Positions 32,035 to 34,872 of a DNA stretch of 64,000 bases are shown in pieces. The DNA comes from Octopus vulgaris (taxonomy: Eukaryota), in assembly GCA_951406725.2 (NCBI GenBank), contig OX597821.1, positions 6,820,001 through 6,884,000 of the forward strand, in the 5' to 3' direction. Numbering within the stretch: the stretch's first letter is position 1; each line of letters begins with the position of its first letter. The notes under the pieces are model-generated. The model was given only the letters and a program-made list of their open reading frames with translations, was not told where the DNA came from and did no database searches. The translations under genes and the position numbers were made by a program.

Positions 32035-32410
32035 TGAGGGAATATTATTCCAAACTAACAGGGAAAAATTCAATTTAGAAATACTAAATCAAATTTCACA
32101 AGATATAATATATATATATATAAATTAGAAAAAACCCATCTATTATCAATTCAATAATGAAAAATTAAATTACATCATCTAGAAAATTACATATAGAAAA
32201 ATTAAATATAAGATAAAAAGTATAACGATGATTAAGTAATGTGCAAAATAATAAATAAAACGTATATATTTGGTAAAATAACGACACGTGTTTCGTGGCT
32301 ATAATTAATAAATGATTATAGTAAAAATATTAGTAGTATTAGTAACATCACTTCAGTATAAATATAGCCATTTATCAGGTTAAAGATAACTACAATAATA
32401 GAATAATTAT
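32035..32410 (-). mobile_element. AT-rich HHR-bearing element, same family as 34034-34508
   Basis: 32035-32105 is the reverse complement of 34436-34506; 32122-32282 matches 34034-34195. Confidence 0.8.
32279..32382 (-). ncRNA. hammerhead motif with long loop II, G8A core change
   Basis: Minus strand taac CTGATAA a tggctata-(about 60 nt)-tatagcca c GAAA cacgtg TC gtta; palindromic ACACGTGT stem III. Confidence 0.65.
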
Positions 32411-32429
32411 TTTGTGTGTGTGTGTGTGT

Positions 32430-32586
32430 CACTAGCGTAGCTAGGGGGTGGTAGGGGCGTTGCCCCGGGTGGATCATTTAAAAGGGCTACACTGGGTCTG
32501 CTGTACGAAATACATGCTTTTTGCGGAGTCTGGGGAGCGGTAAACGGGCTTAGTGATATACTACATATCACTATAGTACGCTAGTG
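32430..32586. mobile_element. MITE with 10-bp perfect TIRs
   Basis: CACTAGCGTA ... TACGCTAGTG; TSD not evident. Confidence 0.6.
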
Positions 32587-33690
32587 ATACGCATACGTTT
32601 GTGTGTATGTAGATGCACAATCGTTTGAGCATGGAAAAATGAGCTTTGCAGTGTTTGTTCCGGTTCGTTATTTGTTGAGTTAAAATTCCGGCGAGCTTTA
32701 CTTGATCTTTCATTCTTCTGATGAGAGAGAATATCAGTCGAGTACTGGCGACGATATACTCGACTATTCCACCTTCACACAAGATTTATACCCTGTAATT
32801 ATATATATATATATATATATATATATATATATATATACACGCATACACACACATACTCACACACACGCATATACATACATAAATACATACACACACACAC
32901 GCATCCCGACACACCTACTTACGTACATACATACATACATGCATACATACATACATACATACATACATACATACATACATACATACATGCATGCATGCAT
33001 GCATATATACGTACATACGTACTCACATATAAGGTTTGGTTTTTCACCAGCATGTTGCTGAAACGATGGTAAACTATGGAATAAGTGTGTAATACCAGAT
33101 ACTCCATCCTTCATATACCATATATATATACCATATATATATATACATATATATACATATATACATATATATATATGTATATAATATATATATATATATA
33201 TATATATATATATATATATATATATATATATATATATATATATATATATATATATGTGTGTGTGAATACATATACATATTCACACATATATATATATATA
33301 TATATAGATAGATAGATAGATAGATAGATAGATAGATAGATAGATAGATAGATAGATAGATAGATAGATAGATGGATAGATAGATAGATAGATATACACA
33401 CTTACATATATATTTCATAACGTTTATGAGCATTTATAAACGTAGAACTCAACAGGTGAGTGAACAGATGTTTATATTCCAGAAAAGCGCCGATCGTTCA
33501 GGATTGATGTGAGACTAAACAACGACAACATCAATAATATCGCTTTCAAATGTTGGCACAAGGCCAGCAATTTCAAGTCGGTTACAATGACCCAAGTATT
33601 CAACTGGTACGCTTTTTTATTGACTCTGAAAGGATCAAAGGTTTCGGCAACATTGCAACTCTGAACGTAAAGACGGAAAAAATTTCGCTA

Positions 33691-34872
33691 TGGGCGCAGG
33701 AGTGGCTGTGTGGTAGGTAGCTTTCGTACCAACCACATGGTTCCGGGTTCAGTCCCACTGCGTGGCACCTTGGGCACGTGTCTTCTACTATAGCCTCGGG
33801 CCGACCAAAGCTTTGTAAGTGGATTTGGTAGACGGAAACTGAAAGAAGCCCGTCGTATATATGTATGTGAATATATATATGTATGTGAATATATGTATGT
33901 GAATATATATATATATATATATATATATATATATATATATATATATATATTGTTATATTTCGGAATGGTCATATTGCCAGTTTAGCACAACAAATATTTA
34001 AACGTATATATATATATGTATATATAAATCAGAAATTAGAAAAAACACCTTTTATCAATTCAAAATGAACAATTAAATTACACCATATAGAAAATGACAT
34101 ATAATAGAAATATTAGATATAACATAACAATAATATACCAATGATTAAGTAATGTGCAAAATAATAAATAAAACGTATATATTTGGTAGAATAACATTTT
34201 TATTTTTATTTATTATTTTGCACATTACTTAATCATCGGTATATTATTGTTATGTTATATCTAATATTTTTATCATATGTAATTTTCTAGATGGTGTAAT
34301 TTAATTGTTCATTTTGAATTGATAAAAGGTGTTTTTTTTTCTAATTGCTAATTTCTCTCTCTCTCTCTCTCTCTCTCTCTCTCTCTCTCTATATATATAT
34401 CTATATATATATATATATATATATATATATATATATATTTTGTGAAATTTGATTTAGTATTTCTAAATTGAATTTTTCCCTGTCAGTTAGGAATAATATT
34501 CCCTCAAATTATCTATCTATCTATCTATCTATCTATCTATCTATCTATCTATCTATCTATCTATCTATCTATCTATCTATCTCTCTCTCTCTCTCTCTCT
34601 CTCTCTCTCTATATATATATATATATATATATATATATATATATATATATATATATATATATATATATATATATACATATATCAATATCGCTTGACAACG
34701 GATGTTGATATTTTTACGTCCCCGTCACTTACCAGTTCGGCAAAAGAGACCGATAGAATAAGTACTAGGCTTACAAAGAATAAGTCCCGGGGTCGATTTT
34801 CTCGACTAAAGGCGGTGCTCCAGCATGGCCGCAGTCAAATGACTGAAACAAGTAAAAGAGTAAAGAGAGAGT
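33691..34872 (+). mobile_element. SINE family A split by nested insertions
   Basis: Head 33691-33860 and tail 34682-34872 are separated by microsatellites and a fold-back element. Confidence 0.85.
34034..34508. mobile_element. fold-back element with about 140-bp inverted arms
   Basis: 34034-34172 versus 34205-34346 are reverse complements; the long arm continues at 34436-34508. Confidence 0.85.

Follow-up and report, generated by a model that had tools for sequence, protein, structure and literature searches.

Insertion ends of a Penelope-like element concentrate just downstream of a predicted hammerhead cleavage site in the octopus genome

In two families of a Penelope-like element (PLE) of Octopus vulgaris, about half of the sampled genomic copies have their 5′ end within the 15 bases that follow the predicted cleavage site of a type I hammerhead ribozyme, and one fold-back copy, referred to as copy B, ends exactly at that site. 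From the comparison of sequences, we consider it probable that copy B and the other copies with such ends in families 1 and 2 were made by reverse transcription of self-cleaved RNA in vivo.

The window, which is the whole stretch of 64,000 nucleotides that was analysed, lies on contig C8 of a 2.8-Gb genome rich in microsatellites, and its repeat search was dominated by microsatellites. Positions in the element are numbered with 0 as the first base 3′ of the predicted cut and with negative values upstream. The relevant features are as follows.

32035..32409, minus strand: copy A, a 5′-truncated piece of a Penelope-like pLTR that spans -127 to the 3′ tail and is of the uncut and unspliced read-through type (89-93% identity to the best 40 scored of the 2030 candidates found when the genome was searched with copy A)
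32279..32382, minus strand: minimal type I hammerhead with stem I TAAC/GTTA, core at 32378-32372, long stem II, GAAA, a palindromic 8-mer and a predicted cut at 32283/32282 (recognized by motif; no Rfam match)
32039..32051, minus strand: small hairpin at the end of the copy A 3′ tail, a candidate RT start signal (from the sequence and a paired change in a sister family)
34034..34195, minus strand: short arm of copy B, from exactly 0 (34195) to a TA run at about +165, with no tail (by alignment)
34196..34203, no strand: 8-nt AT filler of copy B at the head-to-head junction (by sequence)
34204..34508, plus strand: long arm of copy B, from +22 (34204) to the 3′ tail, with an expanded (CT)n(TA)n run in between (by alignment)

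On the minus strand, copy A reads GAAACACGTGTC followed by GTTA, and cleavage is predicted between 32283 and 32282. The first-pass annotation had claimed that the left arm of copy B matches 32122-32282 and stops at this cut, and both points were borne out, the identity being 86.7% over 166 columns and the last base, 34195, being position 0. The two arms are 96% alike and 87% identical to copy A; judged by these alignments, copy B is a copy of another family member, not of copy A. The hammerhead that had been attributed to copy A itself is present as a motif, but its core reads CTGATAA instead of CTGATGA (G8 to A) and the first stem II pair is broken, so that the relevant ribozyme is that of the family. 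Taken alone, the junction of copy B is weak evidence for cleavage.

Some other observations were made in the window. A tail hairpin is also found in copy B at 34490-34502, and between families this hairpin, a candidate RT start signal, differs in pairs (GGAAT/ATTCC versus GGAGT/ACTCC). The two family 1 insertions are only 1.6 kb apart (gap 32409-34026), although with 2646 matches the tail motif has a mean density of about one per megabase; this possibly reflects homing or a hot spot. Degenerate hammerhead-like words at 31045-31105 and 33060-33075, both on the plus strand, fail the type I scan. Common short interspersed repeats at 33690-33850 and 34690-34870 recur in many of the examined loci and may resemble octopus SINEs.

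Family 1 was defined by 472 matches to an exact 25-mer at +31, family 2 by 778 matches to a motif at +38, and the young family 3 by a 21-mer of its repeat with 4409 exact matches; families 2 and 3 share their 3′ tail with family 1. At three loci (L323, L326, and L334), the family 1 hammerhead lies ~1.4 kb downstream of an ORF end with a CxC linker and a YIG motif, AT-rich 3′ sequence lying between them. This ORF end is 65% identical to an intact 851-aa family 3 ORF, a link that covers the endonuclease end alone, with the RT features being taken from family 3. The family 3 ORF contains SDKT, CTCRDKSNC (CxCx5C linker), CYLC (CxxC), and CRH (CxH), reads RIKWK at the RWK position, and is without CCHH, there being no cysteine pair between VYK and YIG. 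The ORF gave no RT match in Pfam and none in the PDB with a 9-sequence profile; its look-alikes in the Atlas belong to eukaryotic clusters, in some of which 16-48% of the members carry RVT_1, and its sole named homologue is from Octopus bimaculoides. On the strength of these motifs, copies A and B are classed as pLTR fragments of a Penelope-like retroelement, for which the wording 'Hydra-like' is used because the assignment comes from the ORF and not from placement in an RT tree. This Hydra-like PLE has been recently active. Its intact ORFs of 838-852 aa are found at L322:714-3269 and L328-L331, with an Asn-rich insert between RT and endonuclease.

According to Craig et al. 2021 (PMC8557442), elements of the Hydra clade have a single ORF with RT plus a GIY-YIG-type domain at the C terminus, DKT, CxCx5C, CxxC, and CxH, and no CCHH. 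As in that account, the octopus elements have a hammerhead in the pLTR, and the flanks of the sampled copies show (TA)n targets, an inverted 5′-truncated copy, and a tail at a single end. They differ from it in that RWK reads KWK and in that the tail is ~90 nt instead of 30-40. Two other origins were rejected. The copies occur singly, in partial tandem, or head-to-head, as parts of an element that is longer, and not as tandem hammerhead units of 170-400 nt, as would be the case for a non-LTR retrozyme, and a MITE-like origin is at odds with arms that are unequal and part of a retroelement.

The first-pass annotation had set, as the test of its proposal, a histogram of family truncation points relative to the cut. 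For family 1, the first 100 of the 472 listed sites and three neighbours gave 103 arms, from which the two window arms and then 8 of 101 arms with repeated junctions were removed, leaving 93; for family 2, 74 arms from 71 loci were reduced to 72 by the removal of 2 repeats. The sampled arms are the first listed matches on contigs C1-C4. In family 1, 16 arms end at +15 to +31, 48 at -1 to +14, 2 at -2 to -17, 8 at -18 to -100, and 19 further upstream, and the ends per base at risk in the first four bins are 0.011, 0.062, 0.004, and ~0.004. Family 2 behaves in the same way, with 12, 35, 2, 7, and 16 arms and rates of 0.007, 0.058, 0.005, and 0.005, respectively. Just past the cut, the truncation rate is thus about 12-14 times that upstream, and the excess of 5′ ends over these 15 bases is put at 9-14-fold. 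The test came out with a peak at -1 to +14 and with an even spread excluded, and the claim of indirect evidence for hammerhead activity in vivo is supported by ends piling up after the cut in 48/93 and 35/72 arms. A single junction at the cut would have a prior of a few per cent under the family distribution, leaving some room for a coincidental end of copy B taken by itself; however, the counts across the cut (48 versus 2, p 2e-12, in family 1; 35 versus 2, p 1e-8, in family 2) refute the even spread for the family, and a chance end in a family of evenly spread ends is scarcely credible.

The step is found by several other measures. When ends were simulated as evenly spread with the real flanks, the bins flanking the cut received 14% and 12%, and the step at the cut is therefore not a calling artefact. 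With the TA run omitted, by comparing -1 to +10 with the AT-rich -18 to -100, the excess is still 11-fold in family 1 (p 1e-10) and 9-fold in family 2 (p 5e-7). A tail-anchored sample comprised 91 arms, of which 25 were mapped to family 1 and 24 to family 2; 30 that ended in the +165 TA run or were not extended past it (some of them wrongly) were excluded, as were 12 unassigned arms. In this sample, the rates for families 1 and 2 are 0.006 and 0.004 at +32 to +150 and 0.039 and 0.065 at -1 to +17, low values followed by a spike, which indicates a true pile-up and not just a drop. Genome-wide, a 20-mer from 0 is found in 419 arms, of which 293 also have GT at -3/-2 and 253 also have AA at -10/-9. 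The loss of 126/419 (30%) over the 3 bases at the cut, against 40/293 (14%) over the next 7 (p 2e-7), corresponds to an excess of ~70 arms starting within -2 to 0. The peak is present in family 1 and in both variants of family 2; since the two families are homologous, their evidence is not fully independent.

The peak is a pile-up over 15 bases and not over one: exact 0 ends are found in 5/93 arms of family 1 and 0/72 of family 2, and the mode (+11 to +14) lies at a 7-nt TA run that is common to both families. Without cleavage, this shape could be explained if the folded hammerhead made RT stall and the closest TA run then served to join the cDNA end to the (TA)n target. Such stalling would agree with the strong hairpin of stem II (z = -4.35 in L002), with the longest local TA run at +13/+14 being the mode in both families, and with the 16 bases upstream of the cut being GC-richer (AT 0.44-0.50), by which microhomology is disfavoured there. 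However, the base of stem II is at -12 and not within 0 to +14, each family has only 2 ends at -2 to -17, and stem I has 3-4 bp. No more than one end falls at each of the five-base TA runs found at -22, -78, and -84. Furthermore, 12 family 1 arms end at -1 to +2 (0.083 per base, p 1e-9), and five of the family end on G at 0, preceded by five different sequences. We therefore consider stalling without cleavage unlikely. A third account, in which a few short master copies beginning at the cut were amplified so that the peak represents few events, takes some support from one junction being present at 6 loci and four others twice. The repeats (8/101 and 2/74 arms) were removed before the count, whereas the remaining junction sequences differ and the peak recurs in family 1 and both family 2 variants, leaving only a very slim chance for this account.

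The cleavage reading places the ends beside a ribozyme that appears to be conserved. The core (consensus CUGANGA; GAAA..UH) of family 1 is CTGATGA in 32/60 copies, CTGAAGA in 15/60, and CTGAGGA in 7/60, the 60 including a few family 2 copies; family 1 thus agrees with the consensus, whereas the CTGATAA of copy A does not. An intact type I minimal hammerhead is present in the 29 best copies of the copy A family. Stem I covaries between families as TAAC/GTTA, TGAC/GTCT, and CCAC/GTGG (pairs AAC/GTT, GAC/GTC, and CAC/GTG), and the stem III 8-mer is a distinct palindrome in each, namely ACACGTGT (35/60), ACGTACGT (7/11), and ACAATTGT (11/15). Base 17 is C or A in 57/60, 11/11, and 15/15 across the three families. 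From these substitution patterns, the hammerhead is judged to be conserved and under selection in the three families. A scan with Rfam gave no hammerhead, whether at the gathering score or with E values as high as 10, and only miRNA matches driven by microsatellites; the length of stem II and the altered core of copy A may account for the missing hammerhead match. The octopus motif is similar to the minimal type I hammerheads of metazoan PLEs, which have a short stem I, a long stem II, and a palindromic stem III/loop suited to dimer cleavage, as described by Cervera and de la Pena 2014 (PMC4209133); set against these, stem II of family 1 measures ~77 nt. The same authors state that in vivo evidence for PLE hammerheads is absent.

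Family 3 provides information on which RNA is copied. Its long copies (L321, L328-L331) have exon 1, a GTAAGT donor, an intron of 1.1-1.9 kb, and an acceptor that precedes the cut by 48 nt, whereas in its short copies (L341, L342, L344-L347, and L349) exon 1 (~23 nt) is joined precisely to the acceptor; one short copy has the donor shifted 4 nt further on. These exact splice joints show that the RNA copied was sense and processed, and that the ends of insertions follow those of the RNA. A spliced leader with trans-splicing was rejected because exon 1 and the GTAAGT donor are within the element itself. The first 20 regions gave 30 arms, of which 12 have their end at -6 or downstream of it, 10 are spliced to the presumed start site, 6 are unspliced read-through, and 2 are other. 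The family 3 hammerhead looks intact, yet 18/30 arms pass through it and 0/30 end at 0, from which it can be deduced that such a hammerhead need not cut most templates. In 15 of the 18 short head-to-head pairs listed, the gap is 108-166, which fits with both arms passing the cut. Genome-wide, 1475 family 3 arms reach +14. The head-to-head junctions of L344 and L349 at the family 3 start site share a 3-nt loop geometry, which is what a cDNA end folding back on itself would leave.

These data bear on a further alternative, that families 1 and 2 start transcription at the cut position and their copies run off at a capped 5′ end. Family 3 copies do pile up at their presumed start site, and no spliced upstream exon precedes the hammerhead in the arms of families 1 and 2, which were read by eye. 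The missing exon fits the cleavage of a spliced mRNA and equally a different promoter. However, the start site would have to coincide with the scissile bond, whereas family 3, a close relative, has its start 1.1-1.9 kb upstream, with an intron in between; weakly, there is no extra G before 0 in copy B or in the five exact-0 arms. A start at the cut is thus considered improbable. The idea that position 0 is a hidden splice acceptor in families 1 and 2 was also rejected, family 1 having no AG at 0 and there being no common upstream sequence.

The fold-back structure was examined in 42 head-to-head pairs of family 1, part of which were chosen by tail: exactly one arm has the tail in 36/42, none was detected in 5, and both have it in 1. 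In family 3, the tail is on exactly one arm in 10/10 pairs. Arms within a pair are 94.8% alike, compared with 91.9% for random members (15 pairs). One inverted junction recurs at six loci (L042, L097, L101, L108, L110, and L112) and has probably been spread by later duplication or by another element. In copy B, the arm that ends at the cut has no 3′ tail, the tailed arm starts at +22, and neither contains the other, so that a single template switch is insufficient. The proposal of an RNA 5′ end made by self-cleavage and then reverse-transcribed with a template switch is consequently retained for the cleavage, which is supported by the step in two families, and is not supported for the switch as it was put. 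In an inversion by L1-type twin priming, the two arms span non-overlapping parts of the RNA; this was rejected for copy B, in which they overlap over +22 to +165. The fold-back would instead come from two priming events or from a resolved hairpin. Inverted 5′ copies with a one-sided tail have already been described for PLEs, and both the element type and the fold-back structure are known.

In the preferred reading, the hammerhead of the element would cut its RNA, and copy B would end where the cut RNA ended. Reverse transcription would start ~165 or 250 bases downstream of the cut, giving two 3′ ends, and run off at the cleaved 5′ end. Trimming of the cDNA end, often back to the closest stretch of microhomology shared with the (TA)n target or the second arm, would spread the ends over 0 to +14. 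The inverted arm could arise from a second priming at the other start site or from a hairpin resolved by the endonuclease, with one tail per pair. The source of copies like copy A would be RNA that was uncut, read-through, or re-ligated. Most transcripts would then be diverted by cleavage to short dead copies, full-length ones arising only from RNA that is uncut or circular.

Parts of this scheme are shared with known systems. For the Anolis element Poseidon PAc, Frangieh et al. 2024 (PMC11167929) report two RT start sites bracketing the tail, AT-rich targets, and a hammerhead upstream of the start sites, as in octopus, and show in vitro that both strands are nicked and extended. The ORF of PAc begins inside the hammerhead, whereas the family 3 ATG is ~240 nt downstream. 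In their account, uncut RNA is the main in vitro substrate and no RNA-seq reads start at the cut, whereas about half of the sampled arms of octopus families 1 and 2 end there. Similar to the HDV-like ribozyme of R2 (Eickbush et al. 2013, PMC3774820), the cut site would shape genomic 5′ junctions, which microhomology priming makes variable; R2 is, however, another class of element with another ribozyme, and its cleavage yields a full-length template, whereas that of the octopus PLE would lead to short dead copies. Non-LTR retrozymes (bioRxiv 10.64898/2026.07.22.740005) likewise have a type I hammerhead and derive from PLE pLTRs, but the octopus copies are dispersed, truncated, or inverted pLTR pieces and not tandem hammerhead units. 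The Hydra clade text of Craig et al. (PMC8557442) describes neither a pile-up of 5′ ends at the cut nor spliced copies, and a search of the open-access literature, with subscription papers and supplements outside its scope, gave nothing on PLE 5′ ends piling up at a hammerhead cut and nothing on spliced genomic PLE copies.

The role of the hammerhead in PLEs was called unclear by Craig et al. 2021 (PMC8557442), and the idea of an antisense template was raised by Arkhipova 2013 (PMC3846280); the spliced copies of family 3 speak against the latter, and they show that introns are not always retained. Plotting 5′ ends relative to the cut is a cheap test for any genome, to be applied family by family, and in octopus its outcome is positive in families 1 and 2 and weak in family 3. 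More tentatively, and as a reading that we hold somewhat more likely to fail than to stand, PLE insertion ends may be a fossil record of RNA processing: the hammerhead would cut spliced mRNA ~200 nt upstream of the RT start sites and act as a switch, by which promoter-made mRNA yields short dead copies and unspliced read-through or circular RNA is the sole source of full elements. If true, this would provide in vivo evidence for PLE hammerhead activity, identify the sense strand as the template, and explain the retention of introns.
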